From Somniosus microcephalus (taxonomy: Eukaryota), in assembly GCA_052327205.1 (NCBI GenBank), contig JBMRGM010000036.1:33046001-33110000 (forward strand): a stretch of DNA of 64,000 nt, written 5' to 3'. Shown here in pieces: positions 1,294-56,952 of the stretch. The notes beneath the pieces were generated by a model, which was given only the letters and a program-made list of their open reading frames with translations, made no database searches and had not been told where the DNA came from. Position numbers and translations under genes: made by a program. Each line of letters begins with the position of its first letter. Positions within the stretch are counted from its first letter, which is position 1.

Positions 1294-1454
1294 CTCATGA
1301 TCTGTTTCAGTAAAAACCTTTACATCAAAAAGCGTCTGACTAACATCCTCCAGGAATTCTTCAATTGAATGTTCTAGTCTCTGCCGGTCGCTCTCGATAA
1401 TTCTGCGCAGCTGGATATCCGGGTCTCTCTCCGGAATTGGTAAGGTTTCCGTAT
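1294..1454 (-). CDS. Exon A (N-half of CARD-like death-fold domain), copy A1
   Basis: tttacaatcag|AT...GAG|gtatgc; 161 nt, phase 1-0, open: DTETLPIPERDPDIQLRRIIESDRQRLEHSIEEFLEDVSQTLFDVKVFTETDHE. Confidence 0.75.
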
Positions 1455-2339: not shown

Positions 2340-2511
2340 CTCTGTTCTGTTTTTCTGAAAGAATCACTTTCTGTTGGTGTTTGATGTTCTGCAGTTCATG
2401 AAATATGCTCCAGATTTGTCTTTCCCCCCGAGCTCCCTTTTCTAGCACAGTATCGAAAATATATCGAGATGCATCTTTTCTGCAGTGTCTTTCAACAAGG
2501 GTTCTGATTGT
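2340..2511 (-). CDS. Exon B (C-half of CARD-like domain), copy B1
   Basis: tttttag|ACA...AGAG|gtacag; 172 nt, phase 0-1, open: TIRTLVERHCRKDASRYIFDTVLEKGARGERQIWSIFHELQNIKHQQKVILSEKQNR. The distal donor is removed by a 24-bp deletion. Confidence 0.7.
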
Positions 2512-5706: not shown

Positions 5707-5867
5707 CTCATGATCTCTTTCAGTTAACACCTGTACATCAAAAAGCGTCTGACTAACATCCTCCACGAATTCTTCAATTGCATGTTCTACTCTCTGCCGG
5801 TAGCACTCGATAAATCTCCGCAGCTGGATGTCCGGGTCGCTCTCCAGAATTGGTAGGGTTTCAGTAT
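5707..5867 (-). CDS. Exon A copy A2 (CARD-like N-half)
   Basis: ttcag|AT...GAG|gtatgc; 161 nt open: DTETLPILESDPDIQLRRFIECYRQRVEHAIEEFVEDVSQTLFDVQVLTERDHE. Confidence 0.75.
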
Positions 5868-6757: not shown

Positions 6758-6929
6758 CTCTGTTATGTATTTCTGAAAGAATCGCTTTCTGTTGGCGTTT
6801 GGTGTTCTGCAGTTCATGAAATATGCTCCAGATTTGTCTTTCCCCCCGAGCTCCCTTTTCCAGCACAGTATCGAAAATATATCGAGATGCATCTTTTTTG
6901 CAGTGGCTTTCAACAAGGGTTCTGATTGT
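6758..6929 (-). CDS. Exon B copy B2 (CARD-like C-half)
   Basis: tttttag|ACAATC...AGAG|gtactg; open: TIRTLVESHCKKDASRYIFDTVLEKGARGERQIWSIFHELQNTKRQQKAILSEIHNR. An alternative in-phase AAG|gcatgt site would end the exon at 6731. Confidence 0.7.
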
Positions 6930-10120: not shown

Positions 10121-10281
10121 CTCATGATCTGATTCAGTTAGCACCTTTACATCATAAAGCGTCTGACTAACATCCTCCACGAATTCTTCAATTGAATGTT
10201 CTAGTCTCTGCCGGTAGCACTCGATAAATCTCCGCAGCTGGACATCCGGGTCGCTCTCCAGAATTGGTAGGGGTTCAGTAT
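10121..10281 (-). CDS. Exon A copy A3 (CARD-like N-half)
   Basis: ttcag|AT...GAG|gtatgc; 161 nt open: DTEPLPILESDPDVQLRRFIECYRQRLEHSIEEFVEDVSQTLYDVKVLTESDHE (absent from the ORF track because it has no start codon). Confidence 0.75.
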
Positions 10282-11161: not shown

Positions 11162-11360
11162 CTTCCAAATTACTTTCTAACCCAGTCCCTCTGTTATGTA
11201 TTTCTGAAAGAATTGCTTTCTGTTGGCGTTTGGTGTTCTGCAGTTCATGAAATATGCTCCAGATTTGATTTTCCCCCCGAGCTCCCTTTTCCAGCACAGT
11301 ATCGAAAATATATCGAGATGCATCTTTTCTGCAGTGTCTTTCAACAAAGGTTCTGATTGT
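11162..11360 (-). CDS. Exon B copy B3 (CARD-like C-half, long form)
   Basis: ttttag|ACAATC...GAAG|gtatgt; 199 nt, phase 0-1, open: TIRTFVERHCRKDASRYIFDTVLEKGARGENQIWSIFHELQNTKRQQKAILSEIHNRGTGLESNLE. Confidence 0.75.
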
Positions 11361-14534: not shown

Positions 14535-14695
14535 CTCATGATCTGTTTCAGTAAACATCTTTACGTCAAAAAGCGTCTGACTAACATCCTCCACGAATTC
14601 TTCAATTGAATGTTCTAGCCTCTGCCTGTAGCACTCGATAAATCTCCGCAGCTGGATATCCGGGTCGCTCTCCAGAATTGGTTGGGTTTCAGTAT
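14535..14695 (-). CDS. Exon A copy A4 (CARD-like N-half)
   Basis: ttcag|AT...GAG|gtatgc; open: DTETQPILESDPDIQLRRFIECYRQRLEHSIEEFVEDVSQTLFDVKMFTETDHE. Confidence 0.75.
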
Positions 14696-15584: not shown

Positions 15585-15756
15585 CTCTGTTATGTATTTC
15601 TGAAAGAATCGCTTTCTGTTGGCGTTTGGTGTTCTGCAGTTCATGAAATATGCTCCAGATTTGTCTTTCCCCCCGAGCTCCCTTTTCCAGCACAGTATCG
15701 AAAATATATCGAGATGCATCTTTTCTGCAGTGTCTTTCAACAAGGGTTCTGATTGT
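15585..15756 (-). CDS. Exon B copy B4 (CARD-like C-half)
   Basis: tttttag|ACAATC...AGAG|gtactg; open frame. An alternative in-phase AAG|gcatgt site would end the exon at 15558. Confidence 0.7.
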
Positions 15757-18946: not shown

Positions 18947-19107
18947 CTCATGATCAGTTTCAGTAAGCACCTTTACATCAAAAAGCGTCTGACTAACATC
19001 CTCCACGAATTCTTCAATTGAATGTTCTAGTCTCTGCCGGTAGCACTCGATACTTGTCCGCAGCTGGACATCCGGGCCGCTCTCCAGAATTGGTCGGGTT
19101 TCAGGAC
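18947..19107 (-). CDS. Exon A copy A5 (CARD-like N-half; first cassette of the young array in transcription order)
   Basis: ttcag|GT CCT GAA...GAG|gtatgc; open: xPETRPILESGPDVQLRTSIECYRQRLEHSIEEFVEDVSQTLFDVKVLTETDHE. Confidence 0.75.
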
Positions 19108-20109: not shown

Positions 20110-20315
20110 TCAACAACAACAACACCTTTAATGTGAAAAAAATACTCCAAGGCACTTAAGGAAGTTTTAATGAGGCATGAACACGCACATGCTTGCCGAA
20201 GAAAGAGATTGTAAGATTTCAGGAAGACTTACATTAATTGTAGTCATAAAGTGGTTTTTAAGGGGACCCTTAAGGCTACTGAGGTGGCGTTCTTTAGGGA
20301 GGGAATAACATAGTG
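20110..20315 (-). mobile_element. Old L2-type LINE 3' end
   Basis: The plus strand shows the reverse complement of an L2 tail: (AAC)n, ccttta..., ccaaggcactt, ggttttaagg...cttaa, tttagggagggaat. Confidence 0.5.
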
Positions 20316-20404
20316 CGAGGCATCGACTATGTATCTCTCTTCTTCACTCTTTGTATTTCCTGCATTATTATTGCCTGGCCAAGAGCCAGCATTGTTCTCC
20401 TTAC

Positions 20405-20557
20405 TTCTCTGTGTGTAATCTTTTCCGCGATGATCTCTCCAGTTTGTCAACCAATAAGTTACAAAGACTGCTACTGCTCCCAACACTGTTGCAGCAATGC
20501 CTGTACATACGACGGGAATTATGTATTGTTCTTCCGTTATTGCTTTATCGCCAATCA
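20405..20557 (-). CDS. Candidate single-pass transmembrane exon (phase 1-1; alternatively a terminal exon reading to the stop at 20244)
   Basis: ttcattaatttacag|TG ATT GGC...AGA A|gtaagg; 153 nt open: (V)IGDKAITEEQYIIPVVCTGIAATVLGAVAVFVTYWLTNWRDHRGKDYTQR. 25-residue uncharged hydrophobic run with an acidic N-flank and a basic C-flank. Not part of any recognised TE. Confidence 0.5.
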
Positions 20558-20646
20558 CTGTAAATTAATGAACAAGTATCCAGCTGTTGTTATTCAAGTA
20601 TTCTTTGACAGTCCAAACAATCTAAACAAATTGGAAAAGCTGCAGG

Positions 20647-22207
20647 TGTGGCAAAGCCACCAAGGGACTCCTGTATAACTGTATAACTGCCTTTAACAGA
20701 GTGCTACAGCACCTAGGTTTGTTTACAGTATGTAAATAGCCCATTCTGGGTAAGTCCCAGAACCAGCGCGATGACGTCAACGCGTTGGTCACGTGACATC
20801 CCGAAAGGCGGGAAACGTGATGATGCTCTGACGTCAGACTGGGAGGTTCCCAGTTCAGACCTCTGTGAAGCCAGCATTAAGAAATACCTGTTGATTGTTT
20901 CTGCTGCATGCCATTGTTTGTTCTCTAGTTTACATTAAACTTCATTTTATTATCGGACTGACTCAACCTCAGTACTTCAGTTAGGGATCTGTCGATTCCT
21001 ACATTGGTGACCCCGAAGCTTCGCGGACGATTTTCGCGGAGGAAGCGCAGAACAAAATGATGGATGTTATTGCAGCGACCTTGAAGCTCCCTCAATTTTG
21101 GGAACAACAGGCGGCCTCCTGGTTCATCCAAGCGGAGGCTCAGTTCCAGCTTCAGAACATCGTGCTGGATCAGACCTGTTGTCTTTACTTGGTCTCTGCA
21201 CTGGACAGCTCACCGGCTTAGAGGATCATCAGTCTGCTAGAGACCCCACCCGTAGATAACAAGTATGATACGGTTAAGGCGCGACTAATGCAGCTTTTCA
21301 GCCTCACGAAAGCAGGGCGTGCACGACGTTTACTCATGCTGCCCGGGTTTGGCGATGCCAAGCCGTCTGAGTTGATGAGCCAGATGCTCATGCTCCTCGG
21401 TTCAGAGCCGCAGTGTTTTCTGTTTCGGGAGCTGTTCCTGAGCCAGCTCCCCGAGCAGGTGCAAGCAGCCCTCACCAGGTTGGAGGCTACGTAAGGTGTA
21501 GCGTTCGCGGCTGAAGCCGGCACCATTCATGCGATGATGCAGCAGCACTGCGCCACCTCGAAGCATCCCGCCCCGAAGAACCCTGCCTCGGCACCTCCAC
21601 CATCCGGTCTCTGCTACTGCCACTCCCGTTTTGGTCCAAAAGCCAGATGCTGCCGTCCTCCATGTAGTTTCGTGCCAAATGCACCAAGAAAGCAACAGCA
21701 CCGACTGCGTGAACAGAAGGACGACCCCGAGGTCAGTTTCGCATCTACGATGGCGGTTGGAGTTTCCGGGAATATTGGAGTTGTTCGAACAGGCTTGTCT
21801 GACCTCCTCTGCGATTGACTTTTGAGGTTAAAGACACTTCTGGGGGGGCACATGTGGCAAAGCCACCAAGGGACTCCTGTATAACTATATAACTGCCTTT
21901 AACAGAGTGCTACAGCACCTAGGTTTGTTTATTGTATGTAAATAGCCCATTCTGAGTAAGACCCAGAAACAGCGCGATGACGTCATCCCGTTGGTCCCTT
22001 GACGGCCCGAACGGCGGGAAACGTGATGACGTCATGACGTCAGACTGGGAGTTTCCCAGTTCAGACCTCGAAGCCAGCATTAAGAAAAGACCTGTTGATT
22101 GTTTCTCCTGCATGCCATTGTTTATCCTTCAGTTTACATTAAACTTCGTTTTATTATAGGACTAACTGGACCTCAGTACTTTACTTAGGGATCTGTCGAT
22201 TCCTATG
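20647..22207 (+). mobile_element. Non-autonomous Ty3/Gypsy LTR element (CsRN1/Boudicca-like lineage), gag only
   Basis: Two ~355-bp LTRs (20647-21003 TG...CA; 21853-22207); PBS TGGTGACCCCGA (21005-21016, complementary to the tRNA-Trp 3' end); G-run PPT 21842-21848; flanks CAGG/TAGG. Confidence 0.9.
21057..21700 (+). pseudogene. gag: Gypsy gag remnant
   Basis: One frame: LKLPQFW..ASWFIQAEAQF...KYDTVKARL...GDAKPSELMSQM...FLSQLP...LCYCHSRFGPKARCCRPPC (CHCC knuckle); in-frame stops at 21219 and 21492. Confidence 0.85.
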
Positions 22208-22714
22208 TAGGTGCATTAACTTCCATTTATCGTTTGTGTACCGCAATTTTCAGTTTACTTTTTAATATCCTCTGCTGTTTTTACAGTTTCTCTTTGTCAG
22301 ATAATCGCAATCTTGTGCATTTCTACACTTTGCCTAAAAAACGGGTTTATAAGTTTCCGGCTGGAGGTTTATCAGAAACGAATGCGAATTGTGGCTGAGT
22401 TTACTCTGCACTTATTTCCATCTATTAGTTCAAAGGTTAGCATTATTGTCACACAACAATGAACACTGTAATATATTCGAGCCAATACTTATTCAGATAT
22501 CGCCATTTAGTTCTTCTTTTGGGTTCTGACTCGTTTGGGATTTTCCAGTTATAATTGAAATCGAAACAATACTATAAGATTGGTCTGCTTAAAGGCAGAA
22601 GCTGCATTTTCCCAAGTTATATTCCTACAAGAGTAGGATGTACTTTTAGAGATATGCGCTTGCTCCAGATTCCCCACTAAAGACCCACTAATTCAAATTA
22701 ACATTATTATATAC

Positions 22715-22750
22715 CTGCTGGTTGAAATCTATGAACCATTGATTTAAAAA
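22715..22750 (-). CDS. Candidate 36-nt micro-exon (phase 1-1) with in-frame ATG
   Basis: gtttaattcag|TT TTT AAA TCA ATG GTT CAT AGA TTT CAA CCA GCA G|gtatat; in frame with the TM exon and with exon B. Supported by splice motifs only. Confidence 0.3.
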
Positions 22751-25700
22751 CTGAATTAAACGCAATCGGTTCTGAAATCGGCTATTAAAATGATGTCTCT
22801 TCAGTGACACTTGTAAATGTATCAATCTTTCGTGGTTTAGTTGTACATTTTTATTTTGTGACTAAATATACTATTATATTTAAATCCGCGGTTTTAGCAG
22901 CATTTTTACGAACTGTTCAGACGGCTAAACCTTGTTCATTCGATATCCCTACTACTTATGAATAAATATCCGTGTTTGAAATATACAAATTGAAATGTTA
23001 TCACAACAAACAACGCCGATCCTGTTAACAGCGAATGCAAGTTTGCAATACAATAACGGGAATAGTGTAATTGAGAGGAATGGGTGGAAGCTGAAGACGA
23101 TCGTTAAAATACATTGCAGATAAACACTCTAAAATAAAGAATTAATGTTGCAGATATGAATCATATTTAAATCAATTTGCTGTGTCAGGTACTTATTGGG
23201 AATCCTCATTGTTAGTTATTGCCTGAACCGGAATACAGAAAGTAGCATCCTTTCGAATCAGAGGCCACATTAGCCCTTACTACCTGCACGGTTATTCAGT
23301 CACTCCATTCAAGCTTCAACAACTTTTTCACCACTCAGGTTTTATGCAATAAACCACGCTCCTCCTTATCCCGTTTGTCTTTTCAATCCCACTCCCAGAT
23401 GATCAACGCCAACTTCACTCACAATTAGCTTCCCTTCCATACTCTGCTCCCTCCAGATTCCTGCCCACTTCATCTTATTTACTTTTTGACATCCCATGCT
23501 TCACTCCCTCCTTATAAGTCTCGGTGTTTTTGCTTTTCCCTCCTTTCTCAATGTCGGCACCGAAGCTTCCTCTTGACGTTCCTCACTTAACTGGGATCCT
23601 GCTGTGATTTAACTGAACTTAATTTGTCAGCTAATAAAAGCAATCTCTCCCTTTATTGATAGTAATGTTGCAGGGGCCGTCTACTGTGGCGGCCGAATCA
23701 ATATCCACCACTTGACAAATTTATGCGCATTATTTCCCCATACCGCCAAGATCAAGCAGGTGGCTAAAAAATAAAGTAAAACCATTTAACATCTAAATGA
23801 ATGAAGAAGAGGGTTAGCAAGTTGGATTGTGAACTTAACCAGCCTAAACTTGTCCGCAAAATTAGCCGATATCCGCTCGAAATTCCTTCCCATGTTGCCG
23901 CAAGTCTCTTGCTCAAACGGAAATTGGATTTGTTCATGTATCCCCTTGACTGTAGCCTTTTAATAGTGAGTGAACTGTGCCAGCACAAACTTTGGGTAAA
24001 TTTAGCACTTGCCGATCATTTAAGATGGGCGATAGTGACTCAGAGATAAACCTAACGATATTGCATATTATCCGTTTTAAACTAGATCCAAAAGCTGAAG
24101 ATACCACCAATAGTTATAGATAGATTCATCCCGTTATGAGAATTCACATGGGATGTTGAAAACGTGTCCTTAGAGACTGCGCCATCTGGAAATATGTAGC
24201 TTGATAGAATTTCAAAGCTATCGCAATGCTTTAGCATTCATGGAGAGACTCGGCTAACCATCAGCCTTGGTTTCCAGGTTTGCAAAATGATGGATCTCCA
24301 GAAATAGCAGTGGAGTGGTACTAATTGTCTTGCTCTTCCTTTAACTCAGCGGAGGAACGGTTGCTCGAAAGACCTCCTTCGATGTTAAGACTGTTTCCAG
24401 CGATTTAACGTCAATTTTGTAACTGGAGTAGGCATTTCAGAATCTCGTGCATGTTCCTCCATTCAATGAGGTCATGGTTATCTGTATCTTAACTCAATAA
24501 AATCGACGTTGTTCTCAATCCATTAATACCCTTGGCTCGCAAAAATCAATGGAACTCAGGTTTAGTATCAGGTCGTCTGTATTTCTGATTGGTCCATTGG
24601 AGTACAAGACCATATTTCTGATTGGTCACCTGGGAGGACAAACACACCCAGCAGTTTATCTGGAATTTGTAATTAGATCCTGCCTGCCAGAGTATTCAAC
24701 ATCTTTGCAATGTCTAATTGATCCATTCATTATGACAGTCCGGGTGCAGAGCGGACAGTGCTAACACTACTGTGTTCAATTAACAGACAGAGCTCTCCCT
24801 GCTGGGTTACGAGCTCTCACATCGTCCACACTGCCGATTTCAGAGAGGAAGGTTTGAAGCCATGGATGGAACTCAACATGAGTATGAGAATTTTAAAATC
24901 AACTTGTTGGTGGACCATAAGCCAATCAATGTTCCCGCTATTTTTGCAGTGCGCGGCTCCTTTAAGGGCATGAGCGGCCTTCGTGGGACATGCATATTGT
25001 GATCCAGGCCGAACTGTGGGCGGGAGAACAAGATTCATCTTCGCATTTGTATCACCTATTTGCTCTAATCCTCCATCTTTTGACCTGGATCAAATTCTTC
25101 ACCACCCTCACTGTTCTCACAGTGCTCCTCCCATCAAATTCTTGACCTTCCCAACCACTGTGATCTGCTGACCATCTCCCAGTTTACCTGAACTTCAGCC
25201 CCCCAACATGTTCCTGACATTCTCTCCGGCCGAATTCCTCCCCTTCTCTCCCCGGATTACTGAATCGAAACCACCTCCCGCCCATGCTTCTGACCTTTCC
25301 TCCTTGAGTTCCTGACATTCACAAGCCCACCATCCGATCTCTGAAGTTCTCCACAGGGAGCCGAGGGAAGCCTGCCTGCTGAGGTTGCATGCTGCAGCTG
25401 CCGCAAGGTCAGGTGCGCATGCATGGTTCTGGTGAGGCGGCGATTCCTTAATTCTGAATGAAGAGTCGTGTTTGTGTGAAGTCCGTTATTGGGGGGTGCA
25501 TGTGTGTGTCTCTCTAGGCTAGTTTGCCAGAAGCATCTTTACCACTTGAAATACTCGAATTGACGTGGTATCTTACTTTGAAATGGAATACGTTACACTT
25601 GAGTTTAACTAGAATAGACATCGTTCATAGGATATCTTAATTGTAGGTTTGCAACAATATAAAAATAAAGTTGTTCAAGTTTATTAACTTGTTGTGGTGC

Positions 25701-25865
25701 ACAAATATTCGTGTGGACTAAAATAGTACCATTAAACGAATTTGCATTTTAAGCACCATGCTTAAGATACAGTTTAATTGCTAATATTTATCAGTAACAC
25801 GGTTACATGTAAGTTAAATTTGGAATACGTGCAATGCACCTATTCATAACAGTTATAATATCTAA

Positions 25866-40353: not shown

Positions 40354-43300
40354 CTAGGCGCAGCTCTTCCTGACTTGCCTCGACTAAAGCCAGTCTGAAA
40401 TAAACGGAATTTTGATATGTACGCGCTGCCTATCTGGCACAGGCGTTTGTGCTGGCAAGCCCGTTCTGCAGAGAACGGAAGAGCCGGTTTCCAGCGCATG
40501 CGCAGTGCAAGCGTAAAACCAGCACTTCCTTTGGCCCTACGGGTGAGTACACAATGTTTACACACCCGGAGGGAACGGAATTTCTACGGCATCAAACCGC
40601 ATGTTTCTGCGTTAAATTGCATCTGCCAGGTGTCCGCCCATTCCGCCAGCCTTTCTATGTCCTCTTGAAGTCTATCAGTTTTCTTTCCACTGTTCACTAT
40701 ACTTCCAAGTATTGTGTAATGTGAAAATGTTGAAATTGTGCACGGTACACCCATGTCCAAATCATAACTATATATCCAGAAAGCAGTGGTCCTAGTACCG
40801 ACCCCAGGGGAAAACCTTCTTCCAAACCTCAAAAGAAACGTTCCCCAGTACTATCTGTTTCCTCTCGCTTAGCCAATTTCATATCGATGCTGCCATTGTT
40901 CCTTTCAGTCCATAGGTTTCAACTTTGCTCTTTCGTCTATTAAGTGGCACCTTCTCAAACGTCTTTTGGAAATCCATGTGCACCACATCAACCGCATTGC
41001 TCACCAGCCCTTCCATCACCCACTCTGTTGTCGCATGAACAAATTAATGAAGTTAGTTAAACATGATTTGCCTTTGAAACATCTGTGCTTACTTTCCTTA
41101 ATCAATCCACAACTTTCTAAGTGACTTTTAATTCGTCTCGATTTATCGTATCTAAAAGCTTCCCCATTATCGAGGTAAAACTGACTGGTCTGTAGTTGTT
41201 GGGTTTTTCCTTAGAGCCTCTTTTGAACAGGGGTGTAACATTTGCAATGTTCCAGTCCTCTGGCACCACCCCCATATCTAAGGAAGCTGGGAAGATTATG
41301 TCCAGTAACTCCTCAATTTTCACCCTTACCTCCCTCACCATCGTAGGATTCATCCCATCCGGTCAGTCAGCGTTATTGTACCTCCTCTATATCAATTTTT
41401 AACCAATCCAGTATTGCAACTACCCCCTCTTTCACTACGGCGTTGACAACATCTTCTTCCTTGGTAAATTCAGATGCAGAATTCACATTTATTACCTCAG
41501 CCATGCCATCTGCCTGCATGAGTACGTCTCCTTTTCTGTCAGTTGTCAGCCCCAACCCATCACTTACTGCCTGTTTATTATTTACATGCATATAGAAGAC
41601 TTTTGGATTCCCTTTGATGTTAGCTGCCAATCAATTCTCATCCTCTCTCTTTGCCCCTCGTATATCATTTTTCACTTCGCCTCTTAAATTTCTATGTTCA
41701 GATGCAATATCGCCCGTTTTCGAAGAAGCCATACTACAGGACCTATTGCCTCGATCGCCTATTATACACTGCGCCTGAATAACCTTGAATAGATCTAAAT
41801 ACTGGGCGTGTTTTATAACGGTCGGCAAATACGAAGCCGCCTGTTTTGTTTACCCGTCCATTTCGAATTTTATCCTCACAGACGAACTTAAAATAAAGTC
41901 CTGCCGATAGATAATGAACGTTGTTACTCTTACCGTAAACACGATCTTTTGCAAGTTAGAGTTGAATACCACATACCTTCCAGGTTATTTTCTAACCATG
42001 TATCTCTATTCTGTATCTCTAAAATTATCTCTTTCAGCTGGGGTTTGGTGTTCTGCAGTTGAAGAAATATGTTCCAGATTGTTCTTGCTCCACGAGCTCT
42101 CTTTTCCAGCACAATATTGAAAATGTGTCTGGAAGCGTCGTATCTGCGCCGACTTTCAGCTGTAGATCTGATTGTCTAAAAAAAATTGCAATCATATTGA
42201 GCCAAGTAACACAATAATCAGATAATAAACGTTTTTTCTCTTTCTCCCTCTATTTATGAGACGAAATAATAGAGCATTTCACAATCGGATGAGCAGAAGC
42301 TTGTTCAAAGTGATAAGATTTAACGAGCTTCTTAAAGGAGAGGTTCGGCGAAGGAATGTCAGAGCTCAGGGCCGAGGCAGCTGAAAGCTCTGCTGTCAAT
42401 GGTGAGGCGAAGAAAATCGGGGATCAGCAAATGTCCAGGATTGAAGGAGCACAGAGATCACGGAGAGTTGCAGAGAAAGAGATGAACATCGTTGAGCCAT
42501 CCAGGGAAACTCTAAATTCTCACCAACAGATGGAAAATGATAAAGTGCTGAATAAAAGGGGGAAAGTTAAGATTGCAGGAATAGGATTCGACAAAAATCA
42601 AGCATTATTGGTTGTCAGTTACAGTACTTTTTCTTAAGCTCACAAAGTGGTTTCACAAACACAAATTGCCGAAATTGAAGACATAAAAATGTGCGTGATT
42701 TTTTTGTTGGCCAGTAGCACGAAAGGGGCTGATAGATAGTCGGTGGCCCACTTTATGCCGCATCAGATTATCAGTCAATTTACTTCAGTGAGCCTTTCAT
42801 TCAATCCAAGTATCACCTTCATTCATTGAAACAGTAGCAAATGGTTATCAGTCGGTTCTCCATGCACTTTATGAATCTTGTAGTTTATATCTCTAAACAG
42901 CTCTGTACTTTGATAAACTGTTTTTGAGGAGATTATGCAATATGATACTTGGCTCTAATGTTGACACCTGCCACTCATTCGTTTCATACATTTTGAATGA
43001 TTTCGCTTCTATTTTATATTCTCTATTTTTCCTTCATTTGTTTTTCTGTATCAGCCCTACTACCCTTTATATATTTTAAAATCTCATTTTTCGGTCATTT
43101 TCTATGCTCGCCGAAGTAATTCTAGTTTCTAAAGCACCTCTTTTATTCTGGTCTAATTTCTGTATCTTCTATGGCGCTCTTCTCCTATTTGGCAGATTCT
43201 TATTGTTTTTCCGCTGCATAATGTGCTCGTTAACGTGCCAATATATTTGGGCTGTATTTTACTAGCGTAAAAATTGGTTTTACTCCTGTAAAATGAATAT

Positions 43301-45285: not shown

Positions 45286-45446
45286 CTCATGGTCTGTTTC
45301 AGTAAACACGTTTACATCAAATAGCCTCTGACTAACATCCTCCACGAATTCTTCAATTGAATGTTCTAGAATCTGACGGTTGCACTCGATAATTCTCCGC
45401 AGCTGGATATCCGTGTAGCTCTTCATCATCAGTAACGTTTTAGCAT
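45286..45446 (-). CDS. Exon A, older cluster (CARD-like N-half)
   Basis: tattcag|AT...GAG|gtatgc; 161 nt open: DAKTLLMMKSYTDIQLRRIIECNRQILEHSIEEFVEDVSQRLFDVNVFTETDHE. Confidence 0.75.
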
Positions 45447-46489
45447 CTGAATATAATGTCAAAGCATAAATGAGAACAGCTTAAAATACTGCGCCCGCCA
45501 TAAAACAATTAATGCTCTGGGCCAACTGATGCAGCAACAGCGTCTATTACAACATTTCAAGCAATGATACTGCCAGTGGCGACTCACAGAAGAGGAATTA
45601 AAATTAATGCTGTCTCTTTTTCGTATAGTTAGGAGGAAGGACCCAGACCTTGCCAACTTCGGAGGCTGTTTCAAGTAATTAAGAAGGAGAAGGAGGGGCA
45701 TCCGTAGGAACGGAGTCAGTGGGATTGACATCTTTGCCTGGAGTGTGGTGCGGAAGAACCGATACAGCAGAGACCGAAGCCAGGTAGAGGTGTGCAACAG
45801 ATGGGATGTTAAGCAGACTGTAGGAATAACGTAGGTGGGGCCGTATATTAAGTTGAATATGAGTAGGACCATGTCACACATGATCAATTTGGGAAAAGAA
45901 GTAAATGTAAATCAGAGACCTAGTGGTTTACGGAAATCAGGGTCAATTTGAATTGAAGTAATAGAGCTGTGGACAAAATGGTGTTTATGATGGGCTAGGC
46001 CCAAAGGTCTTTTGAGGAATCGAGTCTAAATCTCACAAAAGCATGGACAAAGAACCAGGAAATATTCATATGGCCGTGAATGTCCAGAAATATAACCTAT
46101 AGTTCTTGCTGATGGCGATCAAGACTCCAGGCTTGATTATAATCCTGGGAATCAGCAGATGCTGGTGAGCAATTTTACATAGTCGTGACTTTCACATGTT
46201 TGCCTGAACAGCTAATAAATAATATACAGAGATAATAGTATGAAACACTAAATGCAACTTCATTCGTGCTTCCATTTTCCTTCCTTATTTAAAGGAAGAC
46301 TAAATTGTGAAACAGGAACTGAGAAATGGAAATAATGTGAAGCCCACAGGCCGTCACGCTAAGCTTTACAGATATCAATACATCGAGTACAGGAAACAAA
46401 AATTCGGGAAAATAGATTTAATTATCAATAGACAATAATCACACAAAAACAAATAATTTAGGTTAGACATGATTGTAGCTAGTACAGTT

Positions 46490-48010
46490 CCACAATTAAA
46501 TCTCCTCTCAAACTTCAGGCACTAAGGAGAACACAACCAGCTTGTGCAGTCAATGCACTTAACCAAAGTCCCTCATCCCTGGAACCGTTCTTGTAAATCG
46601 TATCTACACTCTCTCTAATGCCTTCACATTCTTCCTAAAGTGCAGTGCCCAGAGTTGGACACAATGCTCCAGTTGAGGTCGAGACAGTTTTTAAAAAGGG
46701 TTCATTTAAACTTCCTTGCTTTTGTCCTGTATTGCTCTATTTATGAAGCCCAATGTCCCGCACTCTTTGTAACCACGTTCTCAAATAGCCCTGATACCTT
46801 CAACGATTTGTGCACATATGCCCCAGCTCTCTGCTCATGCAGCCCGTTTAGAGTCGTACCCTTTGTTTTATATTGCCTCTCCTCGTTCTTCCTACCAAAA
46901 TATATCATTTCGCACGATTTTGCGTTAAATTTCTTCTGCCACGTATCCACCCATTCCACCAGCCTGTCTAGGTCCTATTGAAGTCTATCACTTTCCTTCT
47001 CACTGTTCATTATACTTCCAAGTATAATGTGACCTGCAAATTTTGAAATTTTACCCGATACACGCAAGCCCAAATCGTAACTATATATCGAGAATAGCAG
47101 TGGTCCTCGTACCGAGCCCCAGGGGAACAACTACCTCCTGTCTGGAAACAATTGTTCTCTGATATTATCTCTTTCCTGTCTCTTAGCAAATTTCGTATCG
47201 ATGCTGCCACTGTCCCTTTTATTTCGCGGGTTTCAACTTTGCTGTAAAGCCTATTAAGTGGCACTTTTTCAAACGTATTTTGGAAGGCCTTGTAAACCGC
47301 ACTGCCCCCACGACATCCACCCTCCCTGTTACCGCATCAATAAAATCACGAACATTAGTGAGACACGATTTACCGTTGAAAAATCCGTGCTGCCTTTCAT
47401 TAACCAATCCACACTTGTCCAAGTGTCTGTTAATTTTGTCCCGATTAATCGTTGCAAAATGCTTCTCCTTTCTCGAGGTTAAATTGGCTGGTCTGTGTTT
47501 GCTGGATTTATACTTACACCCTCTTTTGAACAAGGGAGTATAATTTGCAATGTTCCAGTCCTCTGGCAGCTGTCCCGTATCTAAGGATGAATGGAAGACT
47601 ATGGTCAGTACCTTCAATTTTCTACTAGCAATTTTCACCCTTACCTCCCTCAGCATCCTGTGATTTCTCCCATCCGGTCAGCCAGCCTTTCTGGTACCTC
47701 CTCTTTATCAATGCATATCCCATCTAGTATTGCAACTAACTTCTCTTTCTTTATGAAGTTGACAGCATCTTCTTCCTTGGTAAAGTCAGATGCAAAGCAC
47801 TCATTTATTACCACAGCCATGCCCTCTGCCTGCATACGTAGAACTATTTTTTGGTCCCTAGTCGGCCCAACTCTTCTCTTACAGCCTCCTTATTATTTAT
47901 ATGCCAATAGAAGACTTTTGGCTTGCCTTCTTTGTTAGCTGCAAGTCTATTTTCATCCTCTCTTTGCCTCTCTTATTTCCTTTTTCACTTTCCCTCTTAA
48001 ATTTCTATTT
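46490..48010 (-). mobile_element. Decayed 5'-truncated CR1 (copy of an insertion shared by the older units)
   Basis: EWVDTWQKKFN, LPEDWNIAN.TPLFKRG, QHGFFNGKSCLTN; same 5' truncation context as at ~41695, ~53385 and ~60405. Confidence 0.85.
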
Positions 48011-48291
48011 TGAGATGCGATGCCGCCCGTTTTTGGCGATGCTATACTACAGGCGGTATTGCATCGATCGCATATTTTACTTTGCGTCCGAATAACCTTG
48101 AATAAAACTGAATACCGGACGTGTTATATATAGCAGACGGCAAATGCAAATCCACCTGTTTTGTTTACTCGCCTATGTAGAAGTTCGTCCTCATAGAATA
48201 ACTTAAAACAAGGTTCTCGCCATAAACAACGAACATTGTTACTCTGACAGTAAACACGATCTTTTGCAAGTTAGATTTGGACACCACATAC

Positions 48292-48490
48292 CTTCCAGAT
48301 TATTATCTAACCATGCAACATTTTTCTGTATCTCTGAAAGTATCGCTTTCAGCTTGGGGTTGGTGCTCAGAAGTTCAAGAAATATGTTCCAGATTGTTCT
48401 TTCTCCCCGAGCTCCCTTTTCCAGCACAGTATCGAAAATATGTTTGGTGGCATCGTTTCTGCTCTGACTTTCAGCTAGAGATCTGATTTT
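48292..48490 (-). CDS. Exon B, older cluster
   Basis: gttttag|AAAATC...GAAG|gtatgt; 199 nt open: KIRSLAESQSRNDATKHIFDTVLEKGARGERTIWNIFLELLSTNPKLKAILSEIQKNVAWLDNNLE. Confidence 0.75.
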
Positions 48491-51400
48491 CTAAAACACA
48501 ATTGCAATCATTTTGTACCATGTAACACGATAATCAGATAATAAACATTTTTTCTATTTGTCCATCTCTTTTTAAGATGAATGAATAGAAAATCGCACAC
48601 TCGGATAACCAGAAGCTTGGTTAAAATGATAAGTCTTAAGAAGTTTATTAAAGGAGAGGACTAGCGAAGGAATTTTAGAGCTTTGGGCCGAGGCAGCTGA
48701 AGGCACTGCTGCCGATGGTGAGGCGGAGAATATGGGGGTGAAGCAAATGCCTAGAATTAAATGAGCACAGAGATCACGGAGAGTTGCAGAGAAAGAGAGG
48801 AGCATCGTTGAGCCATCCAGGGAAATTCTAAATTCTCATCAATAACGGAAAAGGATAAATTGCTGAATAAAAGAGCGAAAGTTAAGTTTGGAGGAACAGC
48901 GGAACAGGATTCGACCAAAATCAAGCATTATTGGTTGATAGGAACAGTACTTTTTCATAAGCTCACAAAGTGGTTTCAGAAAATCAAATTGCAGAAATTG
49001 AAAAACATAAAAATACGTGTGAATTTTTTGTAGGCCAGTAGCATGAAAGGTGCTGATAGAGATTAGATGGCCCACTTAATGCCGCGTCCGATTTTCATTC
49101 AATTTAATTAATTGAGCCTTTCATTCATTCCAAGTATCACCTTCATTCATCGAAGCAGTAGCAATATCTTACCGGTTACTTCTTCATGCTCTTTATGAAC
49201 CTTGTAGTTTTCATCTCTAAACAGCTCTGTCCTTTGATTAACTGATTATTTCGGAGTTTATGAAATATGATAATTGTCTCTAATTCTGAGACCTGCCAAT
49301 CATTCGTTTCTTAAATTTTGAACGTTTTCGTTTCTACTTTATATTCTCCATGTTTCCTTGATTTTGTTTACTTAATGAGCCCTACTACCCTATATTTAAT
49401 TTAAAATCTAATTTTTCGTTCATTTCCTATGCAGATCCGAGCAATTCTCGTTTGTGCTGCGAATCTTTTATTCTCGTGTTATTTGTGTATCCTCTATGGA
49501 AATCTTCTCGTATTTGGAGATTCTCATTGATTTTCCGCGGCTTTTTCTGCTCATTAACGTGCCAATATATTTAGGCCAGTATTATTGTTTCGTTAAAGTT
49601 AGTTTTATTCCTTTAAAATGTATATTGCTTTGATTGTCCCGTTATCCTGTACGATTCATATCGATCCTATTGATATCATATTTTCCTGGATGATAGACTA
49701 CCCCTAGAGCACCTACTAGTCACTCCCCATTTCTAGAAATTTATCCAATACTCATTCCTTCCTTGTTTTCGTAAAGCCATAACACTCTAATCAATGTACC
49801 GGACAGGCTGAGAATAACAAACCGTTTCTTCCACATTTATGTTACTTCTATCCATTGGATATTTAAAGTCACCAATATTCACGTTACTGTTAAAGCAGCA
49901 CTTTCTCAATTGTTCTCTATTGATCTTTTTCTATCCACTTCACACTATTCGATGCATGATAATCGCGCCTTTATTATTCTGAAACCCCAAACCTATGGGT
50001 TAATTTGGCATATAATTGATTATATCGGCCATGAGTTCCCGTGCTGCAATTGTGTCTTTTAATAATAACTTCTCCCTCATAATCCTGTCATTACCTAAGT
50101 CAGTTAAGCTATTAATGTTTGTATATCATAACTTATAGCATATCCCCAGACAATCTGTGCCTTCAATTACTCAGCTATATTCGGAATGCTTTGTAGATAC
50201 ATGTGTTGGTTAATTGTAGGAGCTATTCGGAAATGCGAGCATCTGGATATTTTAGATGAGTCCAGAGATTGTTTTTATGGAATGATTAATTATGTTAGTC
50301 TTGACGTCAGAAGATGATGACTGAGGAGAGGCCAGTATTAGTGATGACACTGAGCATTGAGTCGAAGAAGGGGTTAGGAATGAAGGCAATAGGTTGCATA
50401 TCCCATAGACTGGATGAAATTTGGTAGTCCTCGGCAATACGTGAGATAATGCAGATTGTGTGAGGTTAGAAATTAAGAAATGCTTATTTCGATGTAAACA
50501 TTCTGGCAGGGAAGGTCTTATAAAGGCAGAGAGAGGCAGCCATGCTGGGAAGTGCAAAGGAGCAGAGAAATCGAAGCAACTTTTTAGACACTTTCTCTAC
50601 AAATTTCTAGAGATCCGAGGGCAACGGCTGAAACCAATCAAATGGTTCACTGGAAATGCAGGGCTTCTTTGCTAGGGAATGGACAGAAACTTATGGCCTT
50701 GAATTCTGTCAGCTTAGCTTTTAAACGTCATTTAATTTCTTCATGTTATTTTAGAAGTATGTCGCTATTACAAGTTTTATCTTTCTCCAGGTTTTCCACT
50801 GGTGCTATGCTGAGGACGTATGATGGTAGAGCTGCTAGTGATGACTTATAAATTATTAATTTCGATTCGTCTGGGCTTGGCCCGTGCAATCCAGTAATTT
50901 GGGGTATTTGATCAATTGATAGGACGCCCTCTATGTCCGCTGTCAGAAACTGGAGTAAATCCATCCCCTGCAGAAATGCGGCCACTCGATATACCTTAAT
51001 AGCCACACGTGTCACAGTGAATTCACAGAGCTTGTTTTAGTCCTGCCATCCAGGATGTTGATGATGGTCGAATCGCCATTGGTAATTCCATTAAATATCA
51101 GCGAGAGATGATGAAATTCTCGCTTGGTGAAGATGGTCATTCCCTTGAACTTGCATTGCAAGAATATTACTTTTCACTTATCCGGCCAGGTCTAGCTTCA
51201 TATGGGGCTGGACTACTTCATTATTGAAGGAATTGCAAATGGAGCTGAACACTGGGCAATCATCAGTGACTAGCCCCAATTCTGACCTCATGAGGGATGT
51301 CAATTGAAGAAGCACTTACCGATAGTTGGGCTTCGGACGCTGCCATGAAGCAAACATAGTTAGACAATGAGATGCTATTCTCTCATTATTGAATGCATTA

Positions 51401-51596
51401 ATTGAAGATTAAAGAACAAATGAATTTACCAGAGGTATATCTCAGAGGAGCGCTTATGCTTTCTTTGACATCGGACTCAATTTCAGCGTCACTATTGAGA
51501 ACTGCTTATATCGTTGGGTTGCACGGAATACAATTAATCTAACTCTGACTCATGACTCATTTAACGCAATGAGATTCCACCATATTTGTTGCATAC

Positions 51597-51757
51597 CTCA
51601 TGATCTGTTTCAGTAAACACTTTTACATCAAAAAGTTTCCGACTGACAGCCTCCACGAATTCTTCAATTGAATGTTCTATTCCCTGACGGTAGAACCCGA
51701 TAATTTTCCGCAGCTGGATATCCGTGTAGCTGTTCAGCATCAGTAAGCTTTTAGCAT
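51597..51757 (-). CDS. Exon A, older cluster
   Basis: aattcag|AT...GAG|gtatgc; 161 nt open: DAKSLLMLNSYTDIQLRKIIGFYRQGIEHSIEEFVEAVSRKLFDVKVFTETDHE. Confidence 0.75.
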
Positions 51758-51943
51758 CTGAATTTAAAATCAGGAAGTAAATGAGAACAGATTAAAATAA
51801 TGTGCCCGCTATAAAACAATTAATACTCTGGACCAACTGATATAGCAACAGCGTTTCTTAAAGCCTTTCATGTAGTGATGCCGCCATTGGTGCCTCACAG
51901 AGGAAGAATTAAGATTTAATGCTATATTTTTTGGAATAGTTAG

Positions 51944-53385
51944 AACACATCCAGCTTCTCCAATCAATCCAAATAACCAAAGTCGCTTATCCCTGGATCC
52001 TTTCTTGTAAATCTTTTCTGGACTCTCTCTAATGCCTTCACATTCTTCCTAAAGTGCGGTACCTGATTGGGACACAATAAAACATTTGAGGTCGAGGAAG
52101 TGTTTAATAAATGTTCATTATTGCTTCCTTCCTGTTGACCTCTATTTCTCTATTTATGCAGCACCGCCTCTCATAAGCTTTTTAAGCTCTTTCTCAAACT
52201 GCCCTGATATCTTCAAGGCTTTGTGTATGTGTAGACCCAGGTCTCTCTGCTCATGCAGCTCGCTTACAATTGTACCCTTTATTTTCTATTGCTTCTCATC
52301 GTTCTTCCTTCCAAAACGTATCAGTTCGCACGTTTCTCCGTTAAATTCCTCCTACCACGTGTCCGCCCTGTCCACCAACCTGACTGTGTCCTCTTGAAGT
52401 GTATCACTTTTATTTTCCCTTTTCACTCTACTTCCAAATAACTTGTGATCTGCACATTTGGAATTTGTTCCCGGTGCACCCAAGTCCAAATTATAACTAT
52501 ATGTCCAAAAAGGCAGTGGTCCTAGTACTTACCCAAGGGGAACACCTTCCTCCTGTCCTAAAAACAACCGTTCCCCAATACTATCTGTTTCCTGTCACTT
52601 AGCCAATTTCGTATCGATTCTGCCACTGTCCGTTTTATTCCATGTGTTTCAACTTTGCTGTCAAGCCTATTAAGTGGCACTTTAACAAACGACTGTTTAA
52701 ATCCTTGTAAACTGCATCGACCACATTGCCCGCACCACCCAACCCTCTTTGTTACTGCAGCAGAAATATCAATCAAATTAGTTAAACATGATTTGCCTTT
52801 GAAATATCTGTGCTTACTTTCCTTAATCAATCCACAACTGTCCAAGTGACTGTTAATTTTGTCCCGATTTATCGTTTCTAAAAGCTTTCCCATTACCAAC
52901 GTTAAAATGACTGGTGTGTAATTGCTGAATGTAACCTTACACCATCTTTTGAACAAGGGTGCAACATTTACAAGATCCAATCCTCTGGCACCACCCGCAT
53001 ATCTAAGGATGATTGGAAGATTATGGCCAGTACCTGCACAATTTCCAACCTTATCTCCCTCAGCATCCTAGGATTCATCTAAACAGGTCAGCCAGCCTTT
53101 CTATCAATTTTTATCCAATCCAGCATTGCAACTGTCTCCTTTTCCCTATGATGTCGGCAAAATCTTCTTCTTTTGTTAAGTCAGATGCAAAGTCCTCAAT
53201 TATTACCTCAGCCATACACGCTGCCTCCATTCGTCGTCTCCTTTTTCGTCCCTAGTCGCCAACAGCCCTTCTCTTACTACCTGTTTATTATTTATGTGCC
53301 TTCGAAGACTTTTATATTCCCTTTAAAGTTAACTGTCAGTCTATTCTCTCACTCTCTCTTTTTCACTTCCCCTCTGAAATTTATA
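51944..53385 (-). mobile_element. Decayed CR1 (shared ancestral insertion)
   Basis: NVAPLFKR..NYTPVILTLVMGKLLETINRDKINSHL...GKSCLTNL...IRNWLSDRKQ. Confidence 0.85.
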
Positions 53386-53668
53386 AGTTCATGTGAGATA
53401 CCACCCATTTTTCGGCGAAGCCATACTACAGGCGCTATCACACCGATCGCCTATTGCACAATGCGCCCGAATAACATTGAATAGAACTGAATACCGGGCG
53501 TGTTTTTTAACGGTGAACAAATGTGAAGCACCCTGTTTTGTTTACACGCCCATAGAGAATTTCATCCTCACAGACTAACTTAATATATGATCCTCGCCAT
53601 TAATAAAGAACGTTGTTACTCTGACAGTAAACACGATATTTTGCAAGTTAGATTTGGACACCACGCAC

Positions 53669-53867
53669 CATTCAGGTCATCTTGTATCTCTGTACCATTG
53701 TTCTGTATCTCTGTCAATGTTGCTTTCAGCTTGGGTTCTGTATCCTGCCGTTGAAGAAATGTGTTCCACATTGTTCTTACTGTCCGAGCTCCCTTTTCTA
53801 CCACGGTATTGACAAGGTGTCGTGAAGCATCGCTTCTGTGCTGTTTATCAACAAGGGTTCTGATTCT
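53669..53867 (-). CDS. Exon B, older cluster
   Basis: tcttttag|AGAATC...AATG|gtgcgt; 199 nt open: RIRTLVDKQHRSDASRHLVNTVVEKGARTVRTMWNTFLQRQDTEPKLKATLTEIQNNGTEIQDDLN. Confidence 0.75.
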
Positions 53868-56800
53868 CTAAAAGAAATGCCATCACATTGAGCCAAGTAA
53901 CACAATGATCAGATAAGATACTTCTTTTCTCTTTCTCCATCTCTTTATGAGATGAATGATTAGAAAATCTCACAATCGGGTGACCAGAATCTTGGTCAAC
54001 GTGGTAAGATATAAGAAGCTTCTTAAAGGAGAGGATTAGAGAATAAATTTCAGAGCTCAGGGCCGAGGCCGCTAAAGGTACTTCTACTAATGGTGAAGCG
54101 AAGAAAATCGGGGAAGTGCAAGTGCCCAGAATATGGATGAACAAAGAGATCACGGCGAGTTGCAGAGATAGAGCGGAGCATCGTTGAGCCATCCTGGGTA
54201 ATTCTAAATTCTCAGCTAATAGATGGAAAAGGATAAACTGCTGAATGAAAGGGGGCAAGTTAAGTTTGTAGAAATAGGATTCGACCAAACTCAAGCATTA
54301 TTGGTTATTAGTAACAATAATACTTTGGAAAACTCGCAACGTGGTTTCAGAAAAGCAAACTGCAGAAATTGAAAAACACAAAAATGCGTGTGAATTTTTT
54401 GTTGGCCCGTAGCATTAACGGGGCTCAAAGAAAATTGGTGGCCCACTTTTTGCCTCATCCGATTTTCATCCTAGTTACTTCAATGAGCCTGTCATTCATT
54501 CCAAGTATCACCTTCATTCATCGCAGCAGTAGCAAAAGCTTATCAGTCACTTCGTCATGCTCTATATGAACCATGTAGCTTTCATCTCTAAACAGCTCTG
54601 CCCTTTGATTAACTGTTTTTTTAGGATTTCATGAAATATGATAATTGTCTCTAATTCTGACACCTGCCACTCATTCGTTTCATACAATTTGAACGTTTTC
54701 GCTTCTATTTTATGTTATCCATGTTCCCTTGATTTGTTTTACATAATCAGCCTTACTACCCTATATTTATTTTAAAATCACATATTATTTATTTTCTGTG
54801 CAAAGCCAAGCAATTATCCTTTATTCTCGTGTAATTTCTGTATCTTCTATGGCAATCTTCTCCTATTTGGCATATTCTTATTGCTTCTCCGCAGCTTTCT
54901 CTGCTCATTAACTTGCAATATATTTGGGCTAGCATTTTAGTTTCGCTAATATTATCCCATTATTTTTTATGATTCATATGAATCCTAATGATATAAAATT
55001 TTCCTGGCTATTCCACTACCTTTAGATCACCTACTAATCCCTCCGCTTTTCTAGAAATTTATCCAATACTCATTCCTTCCAAGTTTCCTAAAACCATACC
55101 AATCTAAACCACGTATCGGACAGGCTACAAATGTCTTGCCCTTTCTCCCACAATTAGGTTGCTTCTATCCTTTGGATATTTAAAGTCACCAACAACTGTC
55201 TTTCCATTATTGCTGCACTTTCTCAATGTTTCTGTATTTCTCTGCTTCTATCCTTCCCCACGATTAGATGTATGATAAAACTCCTTTAATATTCTGTAAA
55301 ATCAAACATATAGATTAATTTTGCGAAGCTTTCCTTATATCAGTCCTGAGTTCCCGTGCTGAATTGAATCTTTTAATAATACCTTCTCCCTCCTAATCCT
55401 GTCCTTACCTAAGCCAGATAAGCTATATACGTCCGTACATCATAATTTATACCATATCACCAGACAATCTGTGCCTTCAACTAACCAACTATATTCGGAA
55501 CACGTTGCATAGGCATGTGCTACGTAAAGGTAGGAGATATTCGGAAAAGCGAGCATGTGGACATAATAGATGGTTCCAGAGTTTTTTTTATGGAATGGGT
55601 AATTCTGTTAGCCTTGACGTCAGAGGATGATGACTGAGGAGAGGCCAGTATTAGTGACGACACTGAGCAGTGAACCGAAGGAGGGGCATGACCTGAGCTG
55701 GCCAGGAATCAAGGCAGTAGTTGGCATTTCACATAGATTGGATGAATGTTGCGAGTCCTCGGTGATGCGTGAGATAATGCAGATTGTGAGTGGTTAGATA
55801 TTAACAAAGTATTTATTTTGATGTAAAAATTGTGGCAGGGAATGTATTAGAAAGGCAGAGAGAGGCCGCCATGCTGTGGAGTGCAAAGCAGCAGAGAAAT
55901 CGAAGCAAAGATTTTGATACGTTCACTACACATTTCCAAAGGTCCGAGCCACCGTTAATGGTGCAAACCAATCAGATGGTTCACTGGAGAAAGAGCGCTC
56001 CTTTGATAGAGAATGGACGGAAACTCACGGCCTTTAATTCCAACAGCTTAGCTTTTAAACATCAGTTAATCTCTTCATGTGATATTAGAAGTACGTCGCT
56101 AATACAAGTTTTATCTTTCTCCAAGTTTTCCACTGGCGCTATGCTGAGGGCGCATGATGTTAGTTCTGCAAGTTATGTCTTAGTAAATTATTAATTTCGA
56201 TTAGTCTGGGTTTGGCCCGTGCAATCCTGCAATTCGGGGTAATTGATCAATTGATATGTCGCCCTCTATGTGCGCTTTCAGAAACTTGAGTAAATCCATC
56301 CCCTGCAGAAATGCGGCCATTGGAATTACCTTAACAGCCGCACATTTCACAGTGAATTCAAAAAGCTGGTTTTAGTTCCCTCCTCCAGGATGTTGATGGT
56401 GTCGGATTCGCCGATAATAATTCCATTAAATATCAGGGAGAGATGATGTGACTCTCTGTTGGTGGAGATGGTCATTGCCTGGAACTTGAGTTGCACGAAT
56501 GTTACTTGTCACATATCCAGCCAAACCTGGATATTGTCCAGGTCCAGCTTCATATGGGAATGGCCTACTTCATTACTGGAGGAATTGCAAATGGAGCTGA
56601 TCACTGCACAATCATCAGTGACTAGCCCCAATTCTGACCTCATGAGTGATGCCCATTGAAGTATCACTTAACGATTGTTGTGACTCGGACGCTGCCATGA
56701 AGCAAATATTTTTAAACCATGAGATGCTTTTCACTCGTTATTAATGCAATAATTGAAGATTGAAGAACAAGTTATGTTACCAGAGATATATCTCAGAGGA

Positions 56801-56952
56801 GCACTTAAAATGTTGTTTTCCTTTACATTTGACTTAATTTCAGAATCACTATTGAGTACTGATTATATCGAAAGGTTGCACGGAAGACAGTTAGTCTAAC
56901 TTTGACTCATGACTCATTTAACACTAGCGATTCCAGCATAATTGTTGCGTAC

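Follow-up and report, generated by a model that had tools for sequence, protein, structure and literature searches.

The transmembrane (TM) exon at 20405-20557 of the window (the whole 64,000-nt stretch of Somniosus microcephalus DNA analysed here) probably anchors a five-CARD NLR in the membrane, as the predicted opening helix of its gene. About 660 kb around the window were examined, and the unit containing the TM exon is named W. Exon order, strand, phase and family membership make TM-CARD5-NACHT-LRR the likely domain order of W, which would thus encode an NLR with a product of about 1,300 aa (the sum of the exon lengths).

The TM exon and its paralogues

The TM exon carries one open frame with a 25-residue hydrophobic stretch, in which acidic residues stand ahead of the helix and basic residues behind it. 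The acceptor ttaatttacag is at 20558, and past 20405 the donor reads GTAAGG after the exonic GAA. The open frame runs about 53 codons beyond this donor. Positions without a contig name are those of the window.

20405..20557, minus strand: TM exon, 153 nt, phase 1-1
20244..20404, minus strand: frame past the TM-exon donor to the stop, used only with intron retention
20647..22213, no strand assigned: LTR-bounded element, inserted 90 nt ahead of the TM-exon acceptor; its two 364-bp repeats are 89.6% alike

The acceptor, the 153-nt exon, its peptide in an open frame and the phase-1 donor had all been described in the sequence-only reading and were re-found, and the exon shares the minus strand and phase 1-1 with the CARD cassettes, as that reading stated. 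Its span of 20244..20560 is right for the exon itself; the remainder is read-through of the donor to the stop. The sequence had also been called unique and non-TE. The second description holds, with five matches in the genome and a DNA depth beside the exon of 60 versus more than 14,000 over the adjoining repeats (run X1). The first does not, because the contig carries four paralogues of the TM exon that are 72-89% identical.

These five copies in the 6.4-Gb genome (W, P1, P2, P4 and P5) all lie within 0.85 Mb of contig C36. Each of them is followed by CARD exon A, 1.5-4.2 kb away, and each keeps the acceptor and an in-phase GTAAG donor, with no stop in any copy; the lengths are 153, 153, 153, 129 and 129 nt. 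The best 19-residue Kyte-Doolittle window of the TM exon scores 2.33, and among 1,396 stop-free 50-codon windows in the surrounding 264 kb, six reach a hydropathy of at least 2.4, a cut-off slightly above the score of the TM exon itself. A helix profile was built from 20 annotated shark and ray proteins only, with no sequence from this genome. When 16,266 ORF pieces were searched with it, P5, P4 and W took ranks 1-3 (E=0.04 for the TM exon of W, third), P2 ranked 9th and P1 fell outside the top 15.

The TM exon is a real exon and not a transposon. A chance hydrophobic frame or a transposon fragment is extremely improbable as an explanation: the exon is short, weakly conserved and adjoins the LTR element, but its only five genome matches all stand directly before CARD exons, the independent profile places it third with two paralogues first and second, and it is colinear with the Scyliorhinus torazame model P0008 described below. 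This reading is largely refuted. The neighbouring LTR-bounded element has a short internal part, and DNA contigs also carry the empty site (paralogue or allele).

CARD, NACHT and LRR exons of the W unit

Each CARD is split between exon A (phase 1-0) and exon B (phase 0-1), which gives every cassette phase 1-1, like the TM exon. W holds five cassettes in 4.4-kb units that are about 90% alike, and all ten CARD exons are open. Exon B has two alternative phase-1 donors 27 nt apart, of which at least one is kept as GT in each W copy.

18947..19107, minus strand: CARD 1 exon A, 161 nt, phase 1-0
15585..15756, minus strand: CARD 1 exon B, phase 0-1, upstream GT donor
14535..14695, minus strand: CARD 2 exon A
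11162..11360, minus strand: CARD 2 exon B, upstream donor lost, downstream GT kept, 27 nt longer
10121..10281, minus strand: CARD 3 exon A
6758..6929, minus strand: CARD 3 exon B
5707..5867, minus strand: CARD 4 exon A
2340..2511, minus strand: CARD 4 exon B, downstream donor deleted, upstream kept
1294..1454, minus strand: CARD 5 exon A
C36:33044125: CARD 5 exon B, beyond the window's first base
C36 about 33031773-33030051, minus strand: NACHT exon, about 14 kb beyond the window's first base
C36:33028541-33027659: three LRR exons, open and ending in a stop, beyond the window's first base

The NACHT exon has an open frame of 585 codons with NACHT, WH and HD2 regions (Pfam NACHT, E 6.3e-32; NOD2_WH, 2e-10; NLRC4_HD2, 4.3e-11). 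The three LRR exons form a short array that matches the LRR ends of the annotated proteins P0005, P0008 and P0064. By homology, the cassettes are assigned to the death fold as CARD domains: CARD exon A alone gives a Pfam CARD E value of 0.084, exons A and B match P0008 at 46-48%, and the relative P0065 passes the Pfam CARD cut-off. An atlas match of middling-to-good score for CARD serves as a lead only. The phases are compatible from the TM exon through the CARDs and NACHT to the LRRs. The TM exon had been proposed to splice to five cytoplasmic CARDs. The order, the phases and the annotated parallels P0008 and P0064 agree with this proposal, but its product would be an NLR and not a CARD-only adaptor, because NACHT and LRR exons come next, outside the window.

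Selection and turnover in the cluster

NACHT follows four of the TM-exon copies (W, P2, P4 and P5), and P2, P4 and P5 each have the TM exon, one CARD and NACHT. P2 carries a stop in an LRR exon, and the NACHT frames are split in P4, in the tandem copy of P4, in P5 and in a sixth remnant. W is the sole intact copy among its six closest NACHT matches. Turnover is therefore high, and W could be silent too. The NACHT exon of W is under purifying selection in comparison with P2 (dN/dS 0.40, p=0.002). For the TM exon, dN/dS lies at 1.0-2.5 and does not significantly exceed 1 (p 0.13-0.16 for the values above 1), so that positive selection was rejected. Its conservation is no higher than that of the flanks, and chance alone would leave the frame open in 21-43% of cases for each copy.

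Several further features of the cluster were observed. CARD exon B at 15756 and its P2 counterpart (C36:33317291) differ by 22 non-synonymous changes and 1 synonymous change (p=0.018, one of five tests), and positive selection on the CARD surface is possible. In P4, exon B, NACHT and the LRR region are tandem-duplicated (C36:33369052 and 33387900) with about 99.96% identity over the 5 kb compared, and both NACHT frames are split at the identical place. An ordinary CARD-NACHT NLR outside the TM clade also lies inside the cluster (C36:33564296-33580026, minus strand), with no TM-exon match ahead of it. NACHT matches number at least 150 in the whole genome; most share about 60% identity with the query and are arranged in large arrays on contigs C35, C36, C40, C43 and others, which amounts to a very large NLR expansion.

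Position of the helix relative to the CARDs

The sequence-only reading had offered a second model, in which the TM exon terminates the upstream CARD cluster and yields a C-anchored poly-CARD protein. MAVS and CARD19/BinCARD-2 combine one cytosolic CARD with one C-terminal helix and have neither NACHT nor LRR. W resembles them in pairing CARDs, probably cytosolic, with a single helix, but its helix precedes five CARDs, and NACHT-LRR follow. A MAVS-like protein of this kind, made from the CARDs of the upstream block and ended by the stop at 20244 after donor read-through, is very unlikely, even though about 53 codons are open past the donor and the phase fits. In every copy the CARD exons come after the TM exon, and the GTAAG donor is kept in all five, while in three of them the tail beyond it has an early stop or a frameshift. 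P2, P4 and P5 have no CARD exon between the end of the previous gene and the TM exon, and the upstream block has a TM-exon copy of its own. In addition, a CARD-only protein with a C-terminal helix is absent among 126 new representatives, which were retrieved with a NACHT-bearing query.

The upstream six-CARD block

The upstream block, P1, comprises a weaker TM-exon copy followed by six open CARD cassettes (12 exons) and no NACHT.

41977..42175, minus strand: last exon B of P1, phase-1 donor at 41977; no NACHT between P1 and the TM exon
45286..60883, minus strand: further P1 exons (starts: A 45446, B 48490, A 51757, B 53867, A 57113, B 60883), all open
C36:33124281: P1 TM-exon copy, beyond the window's end, as are the first exons of P1

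The P1 copy of the TM exon is the least TM-like of the five, with a Kyte-Doolittle score of 1.89 and a Glu in mid-helix. The donor at 41977 is in phase with both the TM exon (20557) and CARD 1 exon A (19107). At 36714-40362 of the window, two tandem 1,811-bp copies, 99.7% identical, consist of intron-like DNA of the upstream CARD units and contain no exons; they are a very recent duplication or an assembly artefact.

The DNA upstream of P2 consists of the DNA upstream of P1 (89-92% identity) joined to that of W (85-92%). Repeats at this joint are uninterrupted at the P1-W locus, whose two sites are bridged by five and one other copies; in P2 they are cut, and no other copy bridges the joint. 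P2 is therefore read as a 51-kb deletion of an older P1-W tandem, from which it follows that P1 and W may be one gene formed by internal duplication. Since the P1 block has no NACHT of its own, the proposed junction 41977-20557 is possible within such a longer gene. The product would be a type I protein with CARD arrays on both sides of the membrane. The weaker upstream TM-exon copy would act as its signal peptide and the TM exon of W as its true membrane-spanning segment, with six CARDs exposed to the cell exterior or the lumen and the other five on the inner side together with NACHT and LRR. The catshark model P0065 (CARD4-TM-CARD-NACHT-LRR after a signal-like start) has the same layout. Such an arrangement of P1 and W is unlikely. 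It draws on the lack of a NACHT in a block whose 12 exons are all open, on the phase of donor 41977, on a tandem order older than P2 with a shared upstream element present only ahead of P1, on the poorly TM-like upstream copy and on the P0065 model. Against it, the P1 CARDs group with the W CARDs in the CARD tree and not with the upstream CARDs of S. torazame, so that the tree gives no sign of an inherited layout; the P0065 model has a single member, and torazame P0242 joins the same CARDs without a TM segment; and the RNA mapping, over 15480-25800, gives no support. Shared ancestry of the pre-helix CARDs in this genome and torazame was accordingly dropped. N-glycosylation sequons were rejected as a sign of extracellular CARDs, as they do not separate the CARDs of P1 from those of W (2/6 vs 0/5) and are common in cytosolic CARDs. 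If the arrangement were true, the outer CARDs could catch filaments or specks from dying cells and relay them across the membrane to the NLR.

It is likewise unlikely that the TM exon is a skipped or silent leftover of duplication, with the upstream copy as the anchor and splicing from 41977 to 19107 placing up to 11 CARDs before NACHT-LRR, or that the locus is unexpressed. The in-exon ATG is lost in W and kept in the four paralogues, the LTR element lies 90 nt upstream of the acceptor, purifying selection on the TM exon is absent, 41977 and 19107 are phase-compatible, and the P0242 gene model shows skipping. However, the W helix is the strongest of the five by hydropathy, its splice sites are intact and an in-phase ATG exon lies upstream; a Met is dispensable where the exon is internal, and only 9 of 19 relatives have one in the 15 residues ahead of the helix; and P2 dropped the upstream block but retained the TM exon.

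The 5´ end and RNA coverage

The reading in which the TM exon opens W leaves two routes for the start of translation. In P1, P2, P4 and P5, an ATG in good context stands seven codons into the exon, and W has ACG at this place (20537). A candidate first coding exon lies further upstream.

22715..22770, minus strand: candidate first coding exon, ATG 22739, 8 codons, phase-1 donor

The acceptor of this element is kept in four copies and its donor in W only, and the element is absent from the upstream block. A start through 22739-22715 would leave a 20-residue outer tail in W. Of the partner junctions proposed earlier for the TM exon, 22715 has a donor that is not conserved in the closest paralogue, and at 19870 no phase-preserving GT donor was seen, for which reason the 19870 element was discarded as a micro-exon. 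A signal-peptide exon ahead of the TM exon was not found by TBLASTN with the N-termini of 14 relatives or with a profile of 19 signal peptides. Three other upstream elements were set aside: a signal-peptide candidate at 36437 starts within a dispersed repeat with thousands of candidates, a conserved upstream block (C36:33134k) considered as an Ig exon has stops in all frames, and CCAAT-like boxes near 24600 sit in a high-copy repeat. Both kinds of start occur among the relatives. P0096 (in the P0008 cluster) and P0029 start at the matching in-exon Met, and P0008 and P0115 have an upstream signal peptide. In the internal helices of 19 relatives, a Met lies at most 15 residues before the helix in nine, where about 27% would be expected (the rows are related).

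Two same-species RNA runs (24% and 31% read; tissue unstated) and two contig sets were mapped to 15480-25800. The depth is 0 over the CARD 1 exons and below 0.2 in the bin of the TM exon, with reads mainly on repeats, which does not imply silence. For the splice junctions put forward at the TM exon, none is listed in the two RNA runs over this stretch at the fractions read.

A shark and ray clade of NLRs with a predicted N-terminal helix

A query with the NACHT exon retrieved 59 and 34 proteins, all of them computed gene models. The best NACHT relatives are Heterodontus models (57%), and many relatives carry a hydrophobic segment ahead of NACHT. P0008 (S. torazame, XP_072354258.1) contains a signal peptide, about 55 residues, a helix, CARD, NACHT and LRR, and aligns with the TM exon, exon A and exon B in the same order. 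P0064 (Mustelus asterias, XP_078087540.1) has the order TM-CARD3-NACHT-LRR. A Mobula gene has nine listed isoforms, and the one examined, P0132, reads signal peptide-TM-CARD-NACHT-LRR. The relatives' models thus unite TM, CARD, NACHT and LRR on one transcript. RefSeq lists multiple isoforms on RNA support, and the many isoforms of some relatives (8, 15 and 9 members) therefore suggest RNA backing. Direct BLASTP matches of the TM exon to the relatives are weak (E 0.004-0.05 in a small set), and a word-index search with residues 70-250 of P0008 returned the self-match only.

The NACHT tree has 88 rows, made up of 85 of the 93 homologues together with W, P2 and P4 (P0054, P0056, P0061, P0068, P0088, P0089, P0092 and P0093 were left out). 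It contains a clade of 48 rows, all sharks and rays and including W (FastTree SH 100), which was recovered by IQ-TREE with 32 rows at 100/100. In these trees, which have no invertebrate rows, the nearest neighbours of the clade are other vertebrate NLRs. The tree holds two whale shark proteins, one inside the clade and one outside. With a cut-off of 1.85 hydropathy, and a label that covers signal peptides as well as helices, an N-terminal hydrophobic segment is present in 20 of the 45 annotated clade rows versus 0 of 40 outside, where 33 have long N-termini. Among the other annotated clade rows, 12 have a long N-terminus that stays below the cut-off, narrowly so in P0080, and 13 are too short for a call. 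In a second sample of 126 proteins, the segment occurs in 2 of 4 in-clade rows with a long N-terminus versus 2 of 77 such rows out of the clade; these two outside rows are bichir and sturgeon models. One model outside the shark clade, P0220 (Polypterus senegalus, XP_039601942.1), has an Ig-like N-terminus (read as butyrophilin-like), a helix, CARD and NACHT; being a single model, it may represent two fused genes or a distinct membrane NLR.

The charge is more positive after the helix than before it in 18 of 19 relatives, as for N-out/C-in insertion. The N-out/C-in topology stated in the sequence-only reading agrees with this bias and with the basic residues behind the helix in W, and membrane insertion itself stands as a prediction. 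The outer parts of the relatives range from about 10 to more than 400 residues, and no Ig-type or other established ectodomain family was found by Pfam ahead of the helix in the seven helix-bearing clade members scanned. W carries five CARDs behind the helix versus at most three in the relatives examined. In P0004, P0011, P0016, P0060 and P0136, a helix-bearing block is repeated two to four times before NACHT; such repeats in several members indicate that internal duplication of the TM exon is common in the family.

The Walker B motif of the clade

Most NLRs have an extended Walker B of the form hhhhD[GAS]hDE and lack the second acidic residue of Apaf-1, as stated in the available text of PMC2323615. 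The Walker B of W, IFDDLDQ, departs from this form. Clade rows have the second Asp in 46 of 48 cases and the final Glu in 7 of 48, while the 40 rows outside never have the former and always have the latter. The WH histidine, which is missing in W, is present in 27 of 48 clade rows versus 38 of 40 outside. The Walker B change points to altered nucleotide handling, and being clade-wide it can serve as a sequence marker.

A model for a membrane-anchored poly-CARD NLR

Given the architecture TM-CARD5-NACHT-LRR, we give roughly an even chance to the following mechanism, which combines membrane location, NACHT oligomerisation and CARD seeding by analogy with known systems. The protein would insert N-out/C-in. 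Its start would come from a signal-peptide exon further upstream or, with the helix acting as a signal anchor, from a point just ahead of the helix itself. From the homologues and the charge distribution, the CARDs, NACHT and LRR would face the cytosol. The helix would hard-wire the membrane location that NOD1/NOD2 gain by S-acylation, and NACHT would oligomerise in the plane of the membrane upon a ligand or membrane damage. Five CARDs could raise the valency, such that few receptors seed a CARD filament of the caspase-1/ASC or RIPK2 type. The varied outer parts and the absence of a Pfam ectodomain in the seven members scanned make an outer ligand-binding domain unlikely and sensing at the inner face likelier. 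Alternatively, the protein may be a regulator or decoy, or its fast-evolving juxtamembrane part may be cleaved to release it.

Comparison with known NLRs

Vertebrate NLRs are treated as soluble cytosolic receptors. By this usual definition they have no membrane helix, whereas W has a predicted helix before its CARDs. The closest parallels are the RefSeq models P0064 and P0008, which belong to the same NACHT clade and share the order TM-CARD(n)-NACHT-short LRR with a homologous helix and homologous CARD halves. They differ in having at most three CARDs, and W has five and no signal-peptide exon found by the searches above. The RefSeq names of such models, 'NACHT, LRR and PYD domains-containing protein 3-like' or '12-like', mention neither helix nor CARD. 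NLRP3 is the nearest solved structure, as the best PDB match of P0064 (E 3.5e-45), and shares the NACHT-WH-HD2-LRR core; however, it has a pyrin domain, and the W clade has CARDs, a predicted membrane helix, few LRRs and a different Walker B.

NOD1 and NOD2 are soluble, carry one or two CARDs and attach to membranes through reversible lipid anchors. They have the order CARD(s)-NACHT-LRR in common with W, in which a permanent predicted helix and five CARDs take the place of the reversible anchor and one or two CARDs. According to the accessible parts of the reports, NOD1/NOD2 must be at membranes to signal, and their attachment is S-acylation by ZDHHC5 (PMC12005342, PMC13286793).

Membrane-integral NACHT proteins have been described in sea cucumber. 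AjNLRC4, in the available text of PMC8699970, has an Ig ectodomain, two helices and an intracellular NACHT with no CARD or LRR, and AjNLR-new is likewise described as membrane-integral in the part available of PMC13133943. The resemblance to W lies in membrane integration. The Ig ectodomain, the second helix and the absence of CARD and LRR set AjNLRC4 apart, as no Ig-type domain occurs in the seven clade members scanned. The anthozoan transmembrane NLRs form one clade with three to five N-terminal helices and were suggested to be an anthozoan-specific innovation, as far as the available sections report (PMC3879445, PMC5094078). The W clade is similar in its N-terminal membrane segment and in forming one clade, but it is vertebrate and would have one helix followed by CARDs.

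In the accessible text of a teleost review, NLRs are intracellular, with two predicted helices in trout NLRX1 (PMC9680067). The whale shark study of Tan et al. (2021) describes an expanded NLRP-related family, and its main text, in the form available, never connects NLRs with 'transmembrane' or 'membrane' (PMC8455134). No shark or ray transmembrane NLR was found in the literature searched, where most subscription papers fell outside the scope and some sources were available in part, and the shark-and-ray clade of membrane NLRs is apparently undescribed.

Membrane-integral NLRs have so far been reported as an invertebrate feature. If the present reading is true, vertebrates would have reached a membrane NLR by a path of their own in this clade, whose members would combine a signal peptide and a single helix with zero to five CARDs, NACHT and a short LRR and would have sat unremarked in public gene models. 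The locus adds the highest CARD count behind a helix among the proteins examined, paralogues with one CARD and the clade-wide Walker B change. The clade would offer a natural test of how permanent tethering affects NLR activation, in comparison with the acylation of NOD1/NOD2, and near-identical paralogues with one or five CARDs would allow a test of whether CARD number sets the signalling threshold.
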